Positions 37,083 through 63,999 of a stretch of DNA of 64,000 nt are shown one piece after another. A model generated the notes under the pieces. The model did no database searches. It had not been told where the DNA came from and saw nothing but the letters and a program-made list of their open reading frames with translations. Position 1 is the stretch's first letter; the number at the start of each line of letters is the position of its first letter. A program made the position numbers and the translations under genes. Source of the DNA: an uncultured bacterium (GTDB lineage: Bacteria; Margulisbacteria; WOR-1; CAZGTC01); the NCBI GenBank assembly GCA_964528395.1, contig CAZGTC010000009.1:1304-65303 (forward strand), read 5' to 3'.

Positions 37083-38318
37083 TTAAGCCAATTCTTCGCA
37101 AAAAGATTTTAGGCGCTGCATGCCTTCTGTAATATTTTGGTTGGAACAGGCAAAACTCAAGCGAATATGGCAATCCTTTGCCCCTTTTGCTTCAAACGGC
37201 AGGCCCGGGATAACGGCGACTTGCTTTACCTCCAAAAGCTGCTCGGCAAAAGAAATGGATCCTTCAATTATTTTTTTTAAAGAGGGGTGCTTTTTCCCCA
37301 AAACTTTGCGGATATCAATCCATAGGTAAAAAGCCCCTTGGGGAGGGAAATAACCAATCTGCGGATTTTGATCTGCCAAAGAAGAAATTAATTTTAAGCG
37401 TCCGGCATAAGCTGCTGCCATTTCTTCTACTTCTTTTTCTGCGGATCCAGACATTGCTTCCTCGGCCGCAGCCTGGGAAATTGAACAAGGCCCGGATGAA
37501 AAATGCGATTGGTACGCGCTTAAGGATTTGATGAAAGCTTGCGGCCCAAAAACCCAGCCAATGCGCCAGCCCGTCATAGCATATTCCTTGGAAACTGCAT
37601 CTACAATTAAAACTGAATCTTTAAAATCAGCTATAATCTTTTTCAAAGAAACCGGTTCAATGCCCTGTCCGTCCGGCAGGCGGGCAAAAGTTAAACGCTG
37701 GTATACAACATCCAAAATAACTGCAACTTTATTTTCTGCTGCTATTTTCACTAAATTATAAAGCTCGGTTTCGGAATAGACCGCTCCCGTTGGATTAGAG
37801 GGGGAACATAAAATTAAAACTTTGGGCGCGTGTTTTTGGATAAGAGAAGATAAAACCTCCTCTGTAATTTTCATCTGGGCAGCAGAAACATCTATTGTGA
37901 TAGATTGTCCGCGCGCCATAGTTACCATTTCCATATATGAAAGCCAAGCTGGGCATGGAATTAGGACCTTATCTTTTGGGTCCAGCAAAACCTGCAAAAT
38001 CTGGGCAAGGACTTGCTTGGCGCCATTGGATACTAAAATATTTTCTGCTGCATAATCTGACTGGTGCAAGCGATTGAATTTTTGGGCAATGGCCTGGCGC
38101 AAAGATAAATATCCGGCTTCTGGAGAATATTTTGTAAATTGGTCAATGTCTATAGATTTTTTCGCTTTTTCCCGAATCGCCTGCGGCGTTGTAAAATCCG
38201 GCTGGCCTGCGGTAAAAGCAAAAACTTTTTTCCCCTCTTTTTTAAGGGCTTCGGCCTTGGCAGTAATTGCCAAAGTTAAAGAAGGACTGATATCTTCAAC
38301 CCATTTCGCATTTTGCAT
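37083..38318 (-). CDS. Class I/II PLP aminotransferase (aspartate aminotransferase-like)
   Basis: GQPDF, SPSNPTGAVY, VSKEYAMTGWRIG, PQGAFY; start at 38318 after AGGAGG. Confidence 0.9.
   Translation of the reverse strand: MQNAKWVEDISPSLTLAITAKAEALKKEGKKVFAFTAGQPDFTTPQAIREKAKKSIDIDQFTKYSPEAGYLSLRQAIAQKFNRLHQSDYAAENILVSNGAKQVLAQILQVLLDPKDKVLIPCPAWLSYMEMVTMARGQSITIDVSAAQMKITEEVLSSLIQKHAPKVLILCSPSNPTGAVYSETELYNLVKIAAENKVAVILDVVYQRLTFARLPDGQGIEPVSLKKIIADFKDSVLIVDAVSKEYAMTGWRIGWVFGPQAFIKSLSAYQSHFSSGPCSISQAAAEEAMSGSAEKEVEEMAAAYAGRLKLISSLADQNPQIGYFPPQGAFYLWIDIRKVLGKKHPSLKKIIEGSISFAEQLLEVKQVAVIPGLPFEAKGAKDCHIRLSFACSNQNITEGMQRLKSFCEELA
37662..37685. repeat. Short palindrome (CCTGYCY..CCGGCAGGC family) in frame in the aminotransferase
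   Basis: gccctgtccgtccggcaggcgggc, translated ARLPDGQG; related to copies at 51218 and 54941. Confidence 0.6.
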
Positions 38319-38339
38319 TAAAAACCTCCTCAAAATAAA

Positions 38340-38395
38340 TTCCTAATTACTAATTCCGAATTCTTAATTAGACATTAGAAATTAGGCATTAGGAA
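38340..38395. repeat. Heptamer-built imperfect hairpin (4 units + 4 inverted units)
   Basis: ttcctaa ttactaa ttccgaa ttcttaa / ttagaca ttagaaa ttaggca ttaggaa; fills most of the intergenic space. Confidence 0.8.
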
Positions 38396-39667
38396 TTATT
38401 TTAGTCCCACGCGGATAACCGAAGAAACCTCTTTGACAACCTTTAGGCTTTTGATCCGGGCAATGGCTTTTTGGAAATTTTGATCTTTTACTTTATGCAA
38501 AATAATCACCAGCGAAGCGATTGTCCCATTGGTCTCTTGCTGGTGCACGGCATCGATGCTGACTTTTTCACCAGCAAAAAGCCCGGCAATTTTTTCCAGC
38601 ACCCCAAAGTGGTCCTCAACTTTTAAGCGTACGTAATAACGGCTCTCGGTTTCAAAAATACTTTTTATAGGGTAATGGTTTTTTAGTTCTAAATCCGCGC
38701 CATTGCCAGATATAATTTCACTGATATCTCCCCAAATCGCTGATCCAGTCGGCAGAGCTCCGGCTCCTTTGCCAGAAAGCATTTGTTCATCCACTGCATT
38801 TCCTTTTATATATATGGCATTAATTTCATTATTCACGGAAGAAAGCAAATGGTTCTTGGGTAAAAGCACTGGGTGCACCCGAACATCCAAAGATTGGTCC
38901 TCTTTCTTTGCAATCGCCAAAAGCTTGATGGCATAGCCCATGCGATCAGCAAATTGCAAATCTTCTAAAGCAATCTTAGCAATGCCCTCAAAATAAACTT
39001 TGCGGAAATCAATTTTGGAGCGAAAAGCTACGGCGGATAAAATTGCAGCTTTATAAGCCGCGTCCTGGCCCTCAATATCTGACGCTGGATTGCTTTCTGC
39101 AAAACCCATTTCTTGGGCTTCTTTTACGGCTTGGTTGAAAGATTTATTCTCCTGCGCCATTTTGGTTAAAATATAATTAGTTGTCCCATTTACAATCCCA
39201 TAGACTTCGGTAATTTTATTGGCTAAAAGAGGGTTTCTTAAAGTACAGATAATCGGGATGCCCCCGCCCACGGCTGCTTCAAAAAGAATTTTTACGTTAT
39301 TGGCGCGGGCTACGGTTAAAAATTCTTCCAAATGCTTGGCAATAACTTCTTTATTGGGAGTAACAACGTGCTTGCCTTTTTTCAAAGCGGATAAAATAAA
39401 TTCGCGGGCCGGCTTTTCTCCGCCAATCGCTTCTACCACAATATCAATCTGGGGATCATTGATAATTTGCCGGGCATCTTCAGTTAAAATTTCTTTGGCT
39501 AAGCCGGATTTTTTGCGGCAGCTTTCACTTATATCCGCAGCTTTAGCCAGATGAACCTGCACTCCGAGGCGCTCGTTAATTAAATTTTTATTTTTTTCAA
39601 AAAGCGCCGCCACCCCGCAGCCAATATTTCCCAAGCCAATAATACCTAAATTTACTGTTCGTTTCAT
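38396..39667 (-). CDS. hom: Homoserine dehydrogenase with ACT domain
   Basis: GLGNIG, FEAAVGGGIP, NGTTNYIL, GKGAG; start could extend to 39679. Confidence 0.96.
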   Translation of the reverse strand: MKRTVNLGIIGLGNIGCGVAALFEKNKNLINERLGVQVHLAKAADISESCRKKSGLAKEILTEDARQIINDPQIDIVVEAIGGEKPAREFILSALKKGKHVVTPNKEVIAKHLEEFLTVARANNVKILFEAAVGGGIPIICTLRNPLLANKITEVYGIVNGTTNYILTKMAQENKSFNQAVKEAQEMGFAESNPASDIEGQDAAYKAAILSAVAFRSKIDFRKVYFEGIAKIALEDLQFADRMGYAIKLLAIAKKEDQSLDVRVHPVLLPKNHLLSSVNNEINAIYIKGNAVDEQMLSGKGAGALPTGSAIWGDISEIISGNGADLELKNHYPIKSIFETESRYYVRLKVEDHFGVLEKIAGLFAGEKVSIDAVHQQETNGTIASLVIILHKVKDQNFQKAIARIKSLKVVKEVSSVIRVGLK

Positions 39668-48038: not shown

Positions 48039-48046
48039 AAAAATAA

Positions 48047-48102
48047 TTCCTAATTATTAATTCCTAATTTCTAATTATGAATTCGACATTAGTCATTCGG
48101 TA
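48047..48102. repeat. Heptamer-built imperfect hairpin, same family as 38340-38395
   Basis: ttcctaa ttattaa ttcctaa tttctaa ttatgaa ttcgaca ttagtca ttcggta. Confidence 0.75.
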
Positions 48103-48107
48103 TTATT

Positions 48108-48428
48108 TTACATCAGTCCTGGTATGTCTAATCCGCCGGTCAAGCCTTTGAATTGGTTCGCAGCAACTTTTTTTGCATCCCCCAAAGCCCGATTGGTAGC
48201 GTCTTTTATGCACATTTCCAAGCGCCGCATATTCCCATCCTTTATGACAGCAGGATCAACTTTTACTTCTTTTACTTCCATATCCCCAGAAACGGTAACA
48301 CTTACCCCGCCGGACTCCCCTGCCACCAATTCACTGGCCAATTTTTTTTGTATTTCCTTCATATTCTTGCGCATTTCATTGGCTTTTTTCAACATATCGC
48401 CCATTTGACCCAAATTTCCAAACACCAT
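48108..48428 (-). CDS. ybaB: YbaB/EbfC nucleoid-associated protein
   Basis: GESGGVSVTVSGD, DATNRAL, GGLDIPGL; between dnaX and recR. Confidence 0.93.
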   Translation of the reverse strand: MVFGNLGQMGDMLKKANEMRKNMKEIQKKLASELVAGESGGVSVTVSGDMEVKEVKVDPAVIKDGNMRRLEMCIKDATNRALGDAKKVAANQFKGLTGGLDIPGLM

Positions 48429-58508: not shown

Positions 58509-58517
58509 ATTATATCA
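58509..58517 (-). promoter_or_regulatory. Extended -10 (TGATATAAT), 6 nt before the pyrR ATG
   Basis: Overlaps the PGM stop TGA; no SD. Confidence 0.5.
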
Positions 58518-59951
58518 AATTTTATTGATAATTGCCTTAACATCCTGCTGGATAAGGGATAATTTTTCCAAAGAATCTGACTCAAAATACCCCCTAAGCA
58601 ATGGCTCGGTGCCAGATGGACGAAGTAAAACCCAAGAAGATTGGTCTTCGAGCAAGAATTTAACTCCATCAATAATTTTTAGCTCTTTTACCTTTAGATT
58701 GCCAATAGTTTTTATGCCCTTGGCTGCCTGGGCTAATTTCTCTTTTACCCCGGGTTTTACCGGCAAATTAATTTTTCCCTGATAAAAAGCCCCTAATTCT
58801 TTTTCCAAATCCGCATAAATTTGCGAGAGAGGCTTATTATAAGCATTAAGCATCTCAACCATAAGCAAATCTGCCAAAGTCCCGTCTTTTTCCGGGATAT
58901 GGTTCAGGATTGAAAGCCCCCCGCTCTCTTCCCCGCCTAAGACCACTTTTTCTTTGAGCATGATTTCTGCGATATATTTAAAGCCCACGGGCACTTCGTG
59001 TAATTTAACTTTGTATTTAGTGGCTAACTTATCTAACATATGGGTTGTGCCAACTGATCTCACCAAGCTGCCGCGCCAGCCTTTTTTTTCCATTAAGTAA
59101 TTGGCGAGAAGAACAACCACGCGATGCGCGCTAATAAATTTCCCTTTTTCATCAATTACTCCAAAGCGATCCGCATCCCCGTCATTGGCCAGCCCTAAGT
59201 CACAAGTTTCAATTTTTACGGTTTTTGCCAGCTCATGCAAATTTTCTTCATCGGGCTCTGGAGACCTTCCTCCAAACAGAACATCGCGCTGGCAATTCAG
59301 TGCGATAATTTCATGGCCGAGTGATTCTAAAAAAGCATCAATATAACCTCGGCCTGACCCAAACATAGCATCATAAGCAATTTTTCTTTTGGTTTTCTTA
59401 ATTAAAGCTATATCTAAAAAAGAAGACAAATAATCAAAATAATTGGGGCGGGGATTAAAATGATCGAAGGTGCCTCGACACCTCGACTCCGCTCGGTGTC
59501 CAGAGCTGTCTCGTACCCTGAGCGGAGCCGAAGGGTTCGCTGAGAGCTCGCTTTTTAAATTCTCTTCTATTTCTTTGGTAATCGCTAAATTGGCTGGACC
59601 CGCATATTCTGGAATAAATTTTATGCCGCAATACTGCGCTGGATTGTGAGAAGCCGTGAGCATAATTGCACCAGAAGCTTTTCTTTGTTTTATTTCCCAG
59701 GCAATCACTGGAGTTGGGGTATCGCGGTCAGGAAATAAGCAATTGATTCCAGCCTCATTCATGACTTTAATGATTTCTAAAGCAAACTTATCTGCTAAGA
59801 ATCGAGCATCGTAGCCCACAATTAAAACTTTTTTATCTAATTTGTGTTTTTGCAGGTAAATAGAAATTGCCCGGGCTACTTTTTTGACATTTTCAAAAGT
59901 AAACTCATCGGAAATGATTGCCCGCCAGCCATCGGTTCCAAATTTAATCAT
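58515..59951 (-). CDS. Phosphoglucomutase/phosphomannomutase family protein
   Basis: FGTDGWR, TASHNP phosphoserine, DGDADRF, VPVGFK, GGEESGG, RPSGTEP. Confidence 0.95.
   Translation of the reverse strand: MIKFGTDGWRAIISDEFTFENVKKVARAISIYLQKHKLDKKVLIVGYDARFLADKFALEIIKVMNEAGINCLFPDRDTPTPVIAWEIKQRKASGAIMLTASHNPAQYCGIKFIPEYAGPANLAITKEIEENLKSELSANPSAPLRVRDSSGHRAESRCRGTFDHFNPRPNYFDYLSSFLDIALIKKTKRKIAYDAMFGSGRGYIDAFLESLGHEIIALNCQRDVLFGGRSPEPDEENLHELAKTVKIETCDLGLANDGDADRFGVIDEKGKFISAHRVVVLLANYLMEKKGWRGSLVRSVGTTHMLDKLATKYKVKLHEVPVGFKYIAEIMLKEKVVLGGEESGGLSILNHIPEKDGTLADLLMVEMLNAYNKPLSQIYADLEKELGAFYQGKINLPVKPGVKEKLAQAAKGIKTIGNLKVKELKIIDGVKFLLEDQSSWVLLRPSGTEPLLRGYFESDSLEKLSLIQQDVKAIINKI
59477..59536. 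repeat. Inverted pair of REP-like hairpins in frame within the PGM/PMM gene
   Basis: GACACC-TCGACTCCGCTC-GGTGTC (59477-59500) and ACCCT-GAGCGGAGCCGA-AGGGT (59515-59536). Confidence 0.85.
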
Positions 59952-60007: not shown

Positions 60008-60457
60008 ATGCATGAAAGTTTTATGAAAGAAGCTTTGAAAGAAGCAAAAAAAGCTTATCAAAAAAACGATGTGCCGGTTGGCTGCGTGGCAGTGAAGAAC
60101 GGAAAAATCATTGCCCGCGCCCATAATCTGCGGGAATCAACCAATGATCCAACTGCGCACGCAGAAATCTTGTGCCTCAAAAAAGCTGCGAAAAAGCAAA
60201 AATGGTGGGTTTTAAAAGATGTAGATATTTATGTAACCTTAGAGCCCTGCCCCATGTGCACAGCAGCAATCATGCAGGCTAGGGCCAGAACTATCATATA
60301 CGGGGCGGACAATTTGTTGTGGGGGGCTTGCAGTAAAAAAATAAAACTAGTTGACAAAAAAATCTTTCAGCATAAAATAAAGATTGTAAAGAATGTTTTA
60401 CCTAAAGAATCTTCAACATTGCTGAAAAAGTTCTTCAAAAAAGTGCGCAAAAAATAA
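60008..60457 (+). CDS. tadA: tRNA adenosine(34) deaminase
   Basis: VPVGCV, DPTAHAE, TLEPCPMC. Confidence 0.92.
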   Translation: MHESFMKEALKEAKKAYQKNDVPVGCVAVKNGKIIARAHNLRESTNDPTAHAEILCLKKAAKKQKWWVLKDVDIYVTLEPCPMCTAAIMQARARTIIYGADNLLWGACSKKIKLVDKKIFQHKIKIVKNVLPKESSTLLKKFFKKVRKK

Positions 60458-60468
60458 ATTCCCGGTGC

Positions 60469-60498
60469 AAGAGACAGTCTAAACGCTGTCTCTTTTTT
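60469..60498 (+). terminator. Intrinsic terminator after tadA
   Basis: GAGACAG-tctaaacg-CTGTCTC followed by TTTTTT. Confidence 0.75.
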
Positions 60499-60503
60499 AT
60501 GGA

Positions 60504-60565
60504 GGTCTCCTCGACTCCGCTCGGAGACCAGGTCATTCAGGTCATTGAGCGAAGTCGAAATGACC
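60504..60565. repeat. REP-like inverted pair upstream of tRNA-Ser
   Basis: GGTCTCC-TCGACTCCGCTC-GGAGACC and GGTCATT-GAGCGAAGTCGA-AATGACC. Confidence 0.88.
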
Positions 60566-60573
60566 GCTATAAT
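60545..60573 (+). promoter_or_regulatory. TTGAGC-N17-TATAAT promoter for tRNA-Ser, -35 inside the repeat
   Basis: -35 at 60545-60550, -10 at 60568-60573, tRNA begins 60590. Confidence 0.7.
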
Positions 60574-60589
60574 ACAACAATAAATTTCT

Positions 60590-60678
60590 GGAAGAGTGGC
60601 CGAGTCTGGTTGAAGGCGGACGCCTCGAAAGCGTCTATACCTGAAAAGGTATCGGGGGTTCGAATCCTCCCTCTTCCG
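60590..60678 (+). tRNA. tRNA-Ser (CGA), 3' CCA not encoded
   Basis: GGAAGAG/CTCTTCC acceptor stem, GACGC-CTCGAAA-GCGTC anticodon arm, long variable arm ATACC-TGAAAA-GGTAT, GTTCGAA T-loop, G73. Confidence 0.96.
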
Positions 60679-60726
60679 TTCCCCGGGTATATTCCGGGCA
60701 CATCCTTTACACTTTTTTATGACCAC

Positions 60727-60788
60727 GTTCCCTTCGACTCCGCTCAGGGAACTGAACAATCGGTCATTGAGCGGAACCGAAATGACCG
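60727..60788. repeat. REP-like inverted pair upstream of the GIY-YIG gene
   Basis: GTTCCCT-TCGACTCCGCTC-AGGGAAC and CGGTCATT-GAGCGGAACCGA-AATGACCG. Confidence 0.88.
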
Positions 60789-60795
60789 TTATAAT
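60767..60795 (+). promoter_or_regulatory. TTGAGC-N17-TATAAT promoter, 6 nt before the GIY-YIG ATG
   Basis: -35 at 60767-60772, -10 at 60790-60795, ATG 60802, no SD. Confidence 0.7.
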
Positions 60796-60801
60796 ACAGG
60801 C

Positions 60802-61179
60802 ATGAAAGGCTACATGTATATTTTAGAGTGTGGAGATGGAACATATTATACAGGCAGCACTAAAAATCTAGAAAAACGTCTGCTAGAACATGGTAATTCT
60901 ATGGGAGCAAACTACACAAAAAAGAAACAACCTCTCAAATTAGTATACTTCGAAGAATATCCAAGAATTGACGAGGCTTTTCATAGAGAAAAACAAGTTC
61001 AAGGTTGGAGTCATGCAAAGAAAAAAGCTCTGATAGAAAGCAAATTCAAAGATTTGCCTCCGTTATCTGAGTGCAAAAATGTTAGCCATTATAAAAACAG
61101 TCGCATCGATTCGACGGACACTTCGACTTCGCTCAGTGTTCGACCCCACTCGGCAACCATCACTCGGTATCCGAGTTAG
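60802..61179 (+). CDS. Small stand-alone GIY-YIG nuclease (UPF0213/YhbQ-like)
   Basis: YMYILECGDGTYYTGST, RLLEH, GANYT, LVYFEE, AFHREKQVQGWS..KKKALI; start set at ATG 60802 because the upstream ORF part overlaps the tRNA. Confidence 0.9.
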   Translation: MKGYMYILECGDGTYYTGSTKNLEKRLLEHGNSMGANYTKKKQPLKLVYFEEYPRIDEAFHREKQVQGWSHAKKKALIESKFKDLPPLSECKNVSHYKNSRIDSTDTSTSLSVRPHSATITRYPS

Positions 61180-61207
61180 TTCGTCATTGAACATAGTCGA
61201 AACGACC
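61116..61207. repeat. REP-like pair downstream of and overlapping the GIY-YIG 3' end, with an internal small hairpin
   Basis: GACACT-TCGACTTCGCTC-AGTGTT; ACTCGG-TAT-CCGAGT; degenerate GTCATT-GAACATAGTCGA-AACGAC. Confidence 0.8.
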
Positions 61208-61259
61208 ACGTAAATATTAATAATCATCAGAATCTATATTTTATATAATCTCAGGAAAA

Positions 61260-61817
61260 ATGTTAAAATACAAACATATGCAAACAACACAATCACTAGA
61301 CCAAATGAAAGCTAATATTGATGGAATTTTTAATAGACGGTTATTAAATATCCCTAACGATATCAAAAAAGAATTTCCAGATATTCTGAAAGCAGAAAAT
61401 ACTCATCAAATAACTTACTATGCAGAAAACAGATATCTTCTTATTGCCTTTTTTTACGCAAAAGAACTCGAAAGAATCAATCAGTTTCTAAATAATAATC
61501 ATCATCCATTTCCCGGCTTAATATCAGAAGACGCGAAAAACCCCGGGGCTTTTAAGTTACAAGATAGCAGAAATATCTTAATTGAAAACTGTACAATATC
61601 AAACACATTTTCATTCTCAAACTGCAAAGATTCAACTATTTTACTAAAAAATCATGAACAGAATATAACTACTAATGAAATCAACCAATTAAACTATAAA
61701 ATTGATTTAGCTTTCATTGTTTTTTTAGGAAAAAATATTAACAATGAAAATTTATTGGAAAACTTAGAAAACTTAACAACCTTTGCAGTCAACAAATGGA
61801 GCTCAAAAATTGGATAA
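61260..61817 (+). CDS. Hypothetical protein, very AT-rich
   Basis: 185-aa ORF with no recognised motif; overlaps the next ORF. Confidence 0.6.
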   Translation: MLKYKHMQTTQSLDQMKANIDGIFNRRLLNIPNDIKKEFPDILKAENTHQITYYAENRYLLIAFFYAKELERINQFLNNNHHPFPGLISEDAKNPGAFKLQDSRNILIENCTISNTFSFSNCKDSTILLKNHEQNITTNEINQLNYKIDLAFIVFLGKNINNENLLENLENLTTFAVNKWSSKIG

Positions 61818-62466
61818 TCCATATGAAGAATTAAAAGGTTTAATTTCTTCTAAAAATAAAAATGAAATCCTGTGTAGGAAATATCTAAAACATACACCTC
61901 AAATTCTATTTAATAAGTCAGTAATAGCCCTTATAAATTTTGATGAGGAAGATCGTGGAAGTTCTGGAGATTCCGATTATGTTATATCCGGAATAGTTAA
62001 AAACGACGCAGGTAGTGAATATAATTTAGCTTATATATGGGAAGTAAAAGCTGCCCAATGTTATATTTTTGAAGAAGAAACAAAAAATAGACTTAAACCG
62101 TCATCAGATTTAGTAAAAGCAGAAAATCAATTAATAAATTATTATAATGACAAAAAAGGAGATGAAAAATTCAGAAATCGTTTTAAAATAACACACTCAA
62201 ATTTTGTAAAAATAGGAGGGATAATAATCGGATCAAATAAAACATTAATAAAATCAAAAAAAATAAAATCAAAACAAACCTTTCTTGAAGCCTCAAGTTT
62301 AAGAGAAAATACTCTATATAAAAGCCCGGGCATAAGATTAATAATTTGGGATACTATTTTAGATCAATTAAAAAATCAAGAATATAACAATAAAACAGAA
62401 AATGGAAAAATAAAAAACATCTCAATCCCAAATGCTCAAACAGCTAATTTCATTAAAATAGATTAA
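61810..62466 (+). CDS. Shedu/DUF4263-like PD-(D/E)XK nuclease domain protein
   Basis: NE..CRKYL...PQIL, SDYV, WEVK, PSSDLVKAENQLINY, IIIGS, IRLIIWDTIL; TTG 61810 follows GGAG (ORF track starts at 61783). Confidence 0.65.
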   Translation: MDNPYEELKGLISSKNKNEILCRKYLKHTPQILFNKSVIALINFDEEDRGSSGDSDYVISGIVKNDAGSEYNLAYIWEVKAAQCYIFEEETKNRLKPSSDLVKAENQLINYYNDKKGDEKFRNRFKITHSNFVKIGGIIIGSNKTLIKSKKIKSKQTFLEASSLRENTLYKSPGIRLIIWDTILDQLKNQEYNNKTENGKIKNISIPNAQTANFIKID

Positions 62467-62516
62467 TAAATTTTTCATAATATATAAATTTAATTCAAAA
62501 TAAAGAAAAGTAACTT

Positions 62517-62632
62517 GGTCGTTGAGCGGAGTCGAAACGATCTTCTTAAAGTACCCTTCGACTCTATAGACACCTCGATTCTGCTCGGTGATCGGATAAC
62601 TCGGTCGTTGAGCGCGGTCACTGAGCGCAGCG
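62517..62632. repeat. REP-like cluster closing the island
   Basis: GGTCGTT-GAGCGGAGTCGA-AACGATC; partial CCTTCGACTC; CACC-TCGATTCTGCTC-GGTG; further decayed TTGAGCG/CTGAGCG copies. Confidence 0.8.
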
Positions 62633-62682
62633 ATACCACATTTGTCATTTGACATTTTTAATTGTTAATTGGAGCGCAGCGA

Positions 62683-63999
<1,317 letters not shown>

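Follow-up and report, generated by a model that had tools for sequence, protein, structure and literature searches.

A probable in-frame insertion of a small hairpin doublet into a phosphohexomutase gene of a free-living Margulisbacteria lineage

The Rickettsia palindromic elements (RPE), reportedly described by Ogata et al. in 2000, are a many-copy palindromic family of 100-150 bp elements (RPE-1 to RPE-10) with conserved arms, found in an obligate intracellular alphaproteobacterium. In fungal mitochondria, double-hairpin elements and GC clusters are small, GC-rich, two-hairpin insertions of AT-rich genomes that also occur within coding regions. Intragenic palindromic repeats are already well known (PMC3733652, which also names RPE), as are the REP/REPIN elements with their RAYT transposases (PMC3116915, PMC3337134), the units of which end on one side in a conserved, unpaired tag (GTAG or CGTC) and are sometimes intragenic (PMC3733652). 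Ssn-family GIY-YIG nucleases cut their own flanking NTS/SRM hairpin repeats as single-stranded DNA (Chenal et al. 2025, PMC11893778); the accessible part of that report deals with cleavage and an effect on transformation, and not with transposition or in-frame insertion (PMC11893778). Here we analyse hairpin repeats in a 1.72-Mb metagenome assembly of 19 contigs (C1, C5, C9, C11-C13 and others) from a free-living Margulisbacteria lineage of groundwater origin, starting from a stretch of 64,000 nt (C9:1304-65303, hereafter the window) that contains a PGM/PMM-family phosphohexomutase gene. We conclude with considerable confidence that a GC-rich segment of this gene is a lineage-specific, in-frame insertion of an inverted hairpin doublet into the loop between domains I and II of a working enzyme gene.

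The repeat family is RPE-like in its behaviour and REP/REPIN-like in its architecture, with a possible Ssn-like partner. It shares with RPE the many-copy palindromic character, the large in-frame share of copies in intact housekeeping genes, the location of the extra peptide in surface loops and the absence of copies from the orthologues of relatives (here PGM, MetRS and TatD); in contrast to RPE, a unit measures 24 nt and a doublet 57-72 nt, a separation by size and not by sequence, the conserved part is the hairpin loop rather than the arms, and the host is a free-living member of the Margulisbacteria. Like REP/REPIN elements, the repeats are short imperfect palindromes that frequently form inverted doublets foldable into one long hairpin, their copies cluster around one small nuclease-type gene, and some are intragenic; REPs, however, are mainly extragenic, whereas about 60% of the loci here are intragenic. 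No GTAG or CGTC tag was found in the unit alignment, where flanking columns 1-4 vary and the invariant columns belong to the loop. No RAYT gene was found beside the repeats, the sole match to Y1_Tnp in the genome being weak (PF01797, C5:50840, E 3.4e-4) and 18 kb from the nearest unit, and a RAYT partner is unlikely. Unlike classical MITEs, which combine terminal inverted repeats of an IS with a target-site duplication, the repeats show no such duplication at a filled and empty site in MetRS, and nested copies restore the outer loop exactly. The fungal mitochondrial elements differ in being organellar, unrelated in sequence and devoid of a comparable GIY-YIG cassette.

The hairpin doublet in the PGM/PMM gene

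The gene and the parts of its insert are as follows.
58515..59951, minus strand: PGM/PMM-family phosphohexomutase gene, an intact, stop-free open reading frame (ORF) of 478 aa (ORF and translation)
59475..59546, minus strand: repeat-derived GC-rich segment of 72 nt, encoding L136-R159 (protein and DNA alignment with the relative's contig L160, composition, low-confidence loop in the structural model)
59477..59500, plus strand: hairpin unit P, GACACC / loop TCGACTCCGCTC / GGTGTC (stem 6/6 paired, loop 12/12 to consensus)
59501..59513, no strand: spacer of 13 nt, CAGAGCTGTCTCG, between units P and Q, partly conserved among doublets (e.g. CAGGAATATCTCG)
59514..59537, minus strand: hairpin unit Q, an inverted copy, on the gene strand AACCCT / TCGGCTCCGCTC / AGGGTA (stem 5/6 paired, loop 11/12)

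The original prediction, made from the letters of the window alone, had placed both hairpins in frame in an open PGM/PMM gene at 59470-59545. The frame is indeed open through units P and Q, the peptide read across the insert (...EIEENLKSELSANPSAPLRVRDSSGHRAESRCRGTFDHFNP...) is the one it gave, and its coordinates are a few bases off the 72 nt that differ from the closest relative. On the plus strand unit Q reads TACCCT-GAGCGGAGCCGA-AGGGTT; because the loops of the two units are mutually reverse-complementary, the doublet can also fold as one long RNA hairpin (minimum free energy -40.4 kcal/mol, z -2.6). GC content reaches 67% in the 60-nt interval 59470-59529, the GC-richest part of the gene, in a genome of about 40% GC (contigs 35-42%). 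This repeat copy is open in five of six frames.

The empty site comes from a close relative known from Logan contigs only (L159, L160 and L161), which was reached through the 90% cluster of the adjacent PyrR, a member of which lies on the 3.5-kb contig L160. On this contig the PGM of the relative extends over 449 residues before the contig ends (92% amino acid and 85% nucleotide identity), and its linker reads ...EIEENLKSE-KFSLAKKK-GAFEHFNP, with eight residues (KFSLAKKK) opposite the 24 residues L136-R159. At the nucleotide level the site is occupied by an AT-rich 24-mer, AAATTCTCCTTGGCAAAGAAAAAA, unrelated to the 72 GC-rich nucleotides here, so that the net gain is 48 nt, or 16 codons. Between the invariant residues T125 and F165 the linker spans 39 residues, compared with 23 in the relative and 21-35 (mode 24) in 63 more distant orthologues (52-59% identical, from Margulisbacteria/Saganbacteria and unlabelled metagenome contigs); the Thermus homologue 1TUO has 19 residues fewer at the position of the insert. 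The linker had been predicted to be longer than usual, a claim that repeat-free orthologues with an equally long linker would contradict; none was found, all having shorter linkers. Because the outgroups have a short linker, the short state is ancestral and the gain is placed in the lineage of the source genome. Searches of the protein database returned no closer PGM homologue (best match 59% with the full-length query, 52% with a 203-aa fragment), and cluster look-ups for eight other host proteins and the cassette proteins described below gave singletons or variants from the same genome and no further empty sites of doublets.

All four Pfam PGM_PMM domains are found in the protein (domain I, aa 2-135; domain II, aa 170-270), and the catalytic motifs and family-invariant residues are all retained. 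An AlphaFold2 model has a mean predicted local distance difference test score (pLDDT) of 91.7, mostly 90 or above outside the insert loop, and template modelling (TM) scores of 0.85/0.90 to 9DU5 and similar values for 1WQA and 1TUO (overall range 0.85-0.91). Residues 141-160, with a pLDDT of 62-64, form a loop between helix 122-136, the last of domain I, and strand 162-165, the first of domain II; the extra peptide is thus predicted to sit outside the folded core, and the enzyme probably still works with 16 extra residues as a disordered surface loop. The suggestion that new peptide had been created in a tolerant linker accordingly agrees with both the alignment, which gives a lineage-specific in-frame gain in the interdomain loop, and the low pLDDT of that loop.

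Aligning orthologues, which had been proposed as a way to define the insertion and any target-site signature, fixed the net gain of 48 nt and left its exact borders free, as all placements tie. Two points here weigh against a simple insertion: the 24 nt native to the relative are unrecognisable in the source genome, and one 48-nt gap or two 24-nt gaps score equally everywhere. On these alignments the insertion of two modules and the replacement of 24 nt by a 72-nt block cannot be told apart. Short direct repeats (AGCTCT, 41 nt apart in PGM; CCCGAT in ValRS) were considered as target duplications and judged uninterpretable.

The same linker holds a different palindrome of about 75 nt in the PGM orthologue of another genome (G033, L002:2415-2495, minus strand), where it is 35 residues long. 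This palindrome reads CTCACCCC...CCCCTCTCCATCT AAG ATGGAGAGGGG...GGGGTGAG, with a loop-like GAGCGGAGCGAAGGGG, and marks an independent repeat insertion at this spot in another family of the class.

A genome-wide family of hairpin units and its mode of insertion

The family is built of units in which a short, variable stem encloses a conserved loop of 12 nt, TCGACTNCGCTC. With up to one mismatch, the 12-mer TCGACTCCGCTC has 42 matches in the genome, two of them tRNA T-arms; three to six of the six flanking stem positions are complementary in all 42, versus mostly none to two in a background of 3-mismatch sites. At the same tolerance CYTCGACTCCGCTCRG has 35 matches, versus one for a reversed control. 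Looser rules yield 53 candidate units at about 31 loci, 13 of which hold inverted doublets (a unit, a spacer of 10-13 nt, longer in a few, and an inverted unit). In an alignment of 40 units the loop is invariant and the stems are variable and covary: 88% of cells are paired, versus 64% in shuffles and 25-44% with slid partners, and double changes occur at all six pairs. Identity among the doublet copies of the genome ranges from 59 to 89%, and the copies nearest to that of PGM are one in intergenic DNA on C13 (89%) and the one in MurF (84%). Because doublet copies are at most 89% alike, no burst of copying can have been recent; repeat activity had been predicted to be recent, and this stands only in the relative sense that the PGM insertion is younger than the split from the relative (dS about 0.96). 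An Rfam search of the hairpins matched no family and found tRNA-Ser alone, and the 12-mer loop is absent from the papers searched, apart from unrelated primer-like strings.

Nineteen of the approximately 31 loci lie within intact long ORFs, all in frame, and in each the insert has Pfam matches on either side. The hosts include ValRS, MurF (two sites), MetRS, TatD, MiaB-like and HemN-like radical-SAM enzymes, LysRS (C-terminus), a GlcD-like oxidase, RdgB, PrmC, GltB, a PabB/TrpE-like enzyme, DUF366, IspE (C-terminus), Poly_export, DUF559 (C-terminus) and a giant surface protein, at least 17 intact genes in addition to PGM. Eight host proteins are annotated as intact in public records, and the extra residues are absent from the PDB homologues of RdgB, MurF and ValRS. 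Units are found in both orientations, in four or more reading frames, at protein termini and in intergenic DNA. Many copies lie at Pfam domain boundaries (PGM, MurF, GltB, the PabB-like and MiaB-like enzymes) or at protein termini, which is the placement that purifying selection alone would leave; selection probably filters the copies, such that those that keep the frame in linkers, termini and loops remain.

Other peptides of repeat origin that lie in frame in housekeeping genes are VIASEAKQS in the HemN-like protein and VISHKSQ in MurF and ValRS (source genome G000, C1:262191-263432, C1:157468-158970 and C1:23652-26498), and a run of TTTCGGA heptamers adjoins the MurF doublet.

Nested copies and the relative's contigs bear on how units insert. 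In five nested copies (MurF, MetRS, RdgB, GltB and Poly_export) the exact removal of 24 nt restores a canonical unit, and a cut after loop nucleotide 7 is consistent with all five; when removal lengths of 18-30 nt were scanned strictly, 24 alone scored in the source genome. A universal 24-nt quantum was rejected, as the few nested cases in 120 loci of other genomes are 25-26 nt. In the source genome the module consists of 4 nt of stem, the 12-nt loop, 4 nt of stem and a 4-nt tail, and since 24 nt are eight codons, its insertion keeps the reading frame by construction; the 48 nt gained by PGM amount to two modules, and copies have also entered the loops of older copies.

Contig L159 of the relative (11.9 kb) is largely collinear with C1, with 82-91% nucleotide identity in aligned blocks. 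MetRS of the source genome carries a nested double unit (+45 nt) at a site that is empty in the relative, and MetRS of the relative carries a 24-mer, CACTTCGACTGCGCTCAGTGCAAG, at another site that is empty here, its position unambiguous and without target duplication; in TatD, 27 nt here stand opposite 15 in the relative (+12). Net gains that are not multiples of 24 (TatD +12, MetRS +45) count against a strict quantum, and indicate that small deletions accompany or follow insertion. From these comparisons it follows that both lineages have received insertions after their split, in a 24-nt quantum and sometimes with small deletions. Each lineage has copies that the other lacks, indicating that the repeat family was active after the split. 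The 9-mer GGCAAAGAA, common to the empty PGM site and one empty MetRS site, is a lead rather than a finding as a possible A-rich target. Along the same pair of contigs, a 999-aa gene is present in the relative only (L159:444-3619, versus C1:197155-197156), and a 2.4-kb stretch in the source genome only (C1:203927-206370).

The exact 16-mer CCTCGACTCCGCTCGG is found in at least 120 genome stretches from many phyla, mostly in a hairpin context. Because a collection of that size is expected to give a few hundred bare 16-mer matches by chance alone, the weight lies on the hairpin context and on the loci with multiple copies. The CCTCGACTCCGCTCGG hairpins form a pan-bacterial family with a conserved loop. 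The hairpin is commonly GATCCC-TCGACTCCGCTC-GGGATG (L039-L158), with several copies per 8 kb at some loci, and the phyla include Verrucomicrobiota, Bacteroidota, Myxococcota, Acidobacteriota, Planctomycetota, Patescibacteria, Cyanobacteria and others.

Other explanations of the long linker

A linker lengthened by slippage or local duplication, or a diverged ancestral long linker that resembles the repeats by chance, would draw on the variation of linker length among orthologues (21-35 residues). This explanation is already contradicted, and we regard it as extremely improbable: the two loops match the genome-wide 12-mer at 12/12 and 11/12 positions with paired stems, copies on other contigs share 84-89% identity with the doublet, the GC content of the doublet stands far from the genome's, and the relative's DNA at the site is unrelated. 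An explanation by which a paralogue (C12:39824-41197) does the work, the gene itself being a pseudogene in decay or a chimera of the assembly, is scarcely more credible, even though the genome is metagenome-assembled and encodes three further members of the PGM/PMM superfamily. No stop interrupts the frame from end to end, and the invariant catalytic residues are in place; the ratio of nonsynonymous to synonymous substitution rates (dN/dS) versus the relative is 0.053, at a dS of 0.96; and the orthologue group is found in 41/41 searched genomes of the class. The locus is moreover present with identical sequence in Logan contigs of three runs of one study, two of which cover it evenly at 13-14x. 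No empty allele was found among the contigs of those three runs, although assembler contigs cannot reveal rare variants; a tRNA-Ser query returned no additional runs.

A third explanation accepts the repeat origin and holds that the hairpins are retained for a function, whether a translation pause at a domain boundary that aids co-translational folding, mRNA stabilization or the binding of a host protein. In its favour, many copies coincide exactly with Pfam domain boundaries, the loops are near-invariant while the stems covary even within genes and in different frames, and the same 16-mer recurs in a hairpin context across many phyla. Purifying selection, however, suffices to explain the placement at boundaries, and covariation is expected if hairpin-competent copies alone are copied; the close relative and the 63 orthologues manage without the hairpins, and units occur alike in either orientation, in four or more frames, at termini and in intergenic DNA. 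We regard retention for function as improbable, if less so than the two preceding explanations, and the hairpins are more probably a tolerated passenger.

If the preferred explanation, the lineage-specific insertion, is correct, a selfish repeat has written new peptide into an enzyme of an essential type and left it unbroken, and the empty site supplies both the before and the after state of the protein. With its large share of intragenic in-frame loci, the small genome would be a free-living counterpart of the Rickettsia RPE case. The value of the finding lies in the clean empty site, the many in-frame copies and a 24-nt quantum combined with self-targeting of the loop. The inserts also affect annotation, as they lengthen linkers and over-extend gene calls, for instance that of the public GIY-YIG ORF which runs through a tRNA gene.

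The GIY-YIG nuclease cassette

Ten of the 53 units fall within 3.2 kb around a single GIY-YIG gene, which lies 1.3 kb from the PGM insert and has doublets on either side.
60505..60564, no strand: hairpin doublet 1, between tadA and tRNA-Ser, absent in the relative
60589..60679, plus strand: tRNA-Ser(CGA) (Rfam match)
60728..60786, no strand: hairpin doublet 2, directly 5' of the GIY-YIG start codon (unit scan)
60802..61179, plus strand: small single-domain GIY-YIG nuclease gene of 125 aa, its 3' tail entering doublet 3 (Pfam PF01541, E 1.4e-16)
61117..61206, no strand: hairpin doublet 3, 3' of the nuclease (unit scan)
62518..62592, no strand: hairpin doublet 4, units in opposite order, at the far end of a Shedu-like two-gene module (unit scan)

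In the relative (L161:540-850, versus 60457-62683 of the window) tadA and ahcY are only about 280 nt apart, with tRNA-Ser(CGA) and then one degenerate unit in between, and it is without doublet 1, the GIY-YIG gene, the Shedu-like two-gene module and the other doublets (about 2 kb). The tRNA-Ser is 77% identical to the relative's, whereas the flanking genes are 88-89% identical; this low identity suggests that the cassette integrated and brought its own copy of the tRNA. It may have been acquired horizontally next to tRNA-Ser, as the closest homologue of the nuclease (63% identity) is in a metagenome-assembled genome (MAG) of the Gammaproteobacteria and the sister lineage is without the cassette.

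A hairpin-recognizing enzyme that works on single-stranded DNA probably moves the units, and the neighbouring Ssn-like GIY-YIG protein is the best candidate for this mobilizer, a tentative assignment in which we have less than even confidence. As in the Ssn system, a small single-domain GIY-YIG gene is flanked on both sides by copies of a hairpin repeat that is found genome-wide. A homologous nuclease lies beside the same repeat in two of the 120 motif-bearing loci of other phyla (63% identity in the Gammaproteobacteria MAG, 43% in a Bacteroidota MAG). The original prediction had associated the PGM insertion with the nuclease 1.3 kb away, and the evidence on this is circumstantial: the relative is without both the cassette and the PGM insertion, a single comparison, but the PGM copy is closer to the C13 and MurF copies than to those flanking the nuclease (69-73%). 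The latter identities count against a link with the nuclease, as do two negative results. The motif was found within 1.5 kb of none of the loci of the 15 best in-class GIY-YIG homologues, and the published SRM pattern HGTCWYN(0-2)YYVSBRHN(0-5)WNVSBRGN(0-2)RNCYNB, which has 12 matches in the genome (shuffles 1-5), has none in C9 59-66 kb and none on the units there. The nuclease itself gave a sub-threshold match only in NCBIfam. Because the size of RPE, the GTAG or CGTC tag with a RAYT gene and the SRM pattern all failed, the repeat family is not assignable to any named family.

A fuller mechanism, which we consider rather unlikely as a whole, is that the 24-nt hairpin module is itself mobile and among the smallest such elements known, that the Ssn-like GIY-YIG protein copies it into single-stranded DNA without target duplication, and that the cassette was acquired horizontally. 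Preferred targets of the module would be the loops of units already in place, with entry after loop nucleotide 7, or A-rich sites such as GGCAAAGAA. Were this so, the exact eight-codon length would make every insertion in this lineage frame-preserving, and loops of 8 and 16 residues would be added steadily to housekeeping proteins. The 24-nt quantum, the self-targeting of the loop and a GIY-YIG gene that recurs next to the repeat are a testable lead on the question of whether Ssn-type nucleases mobilize their own repeats, a point that goes beyond the accessible part of the report on their cleavage activity (PMC11893778).

DUF559 was also considered as a partner of the repeats and was rejected, as no DUF559 homologue occurs in the 120 motif-bearing loci; the genome's own DUF559 gene on C11 has one unit at its 3' end. 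This gene (C11:61589-62005, in the region C11:61440-62060, L037) has a CCCTCTCCC...GGGAGAGGG hairpin upstream and a 3' end formed by a unit embedded in a CCTTCTCCC...GGGAGAAGG hairpin, and the region, bracketed by direct repeats AACCCAAAACCGCTTCGT, resembles a small mobile cassette.

The public calls of the GIY-YIG gene (226 aa and 189 aa; P0351 and P0352; window 60499-61179) begin 5' of the ATG at 60802, the likely start codon, the longer reading through the tRNA-Ser gene and two hairpin doublets, and the C-terminal tail of the protein (...DTSTSLSV...) is encoded by a hairpin unit. Elsewhere in the window, palindromic arrays of AATTCCT-type heptamers occur twice, at 38318-38403 and 48039-48124.

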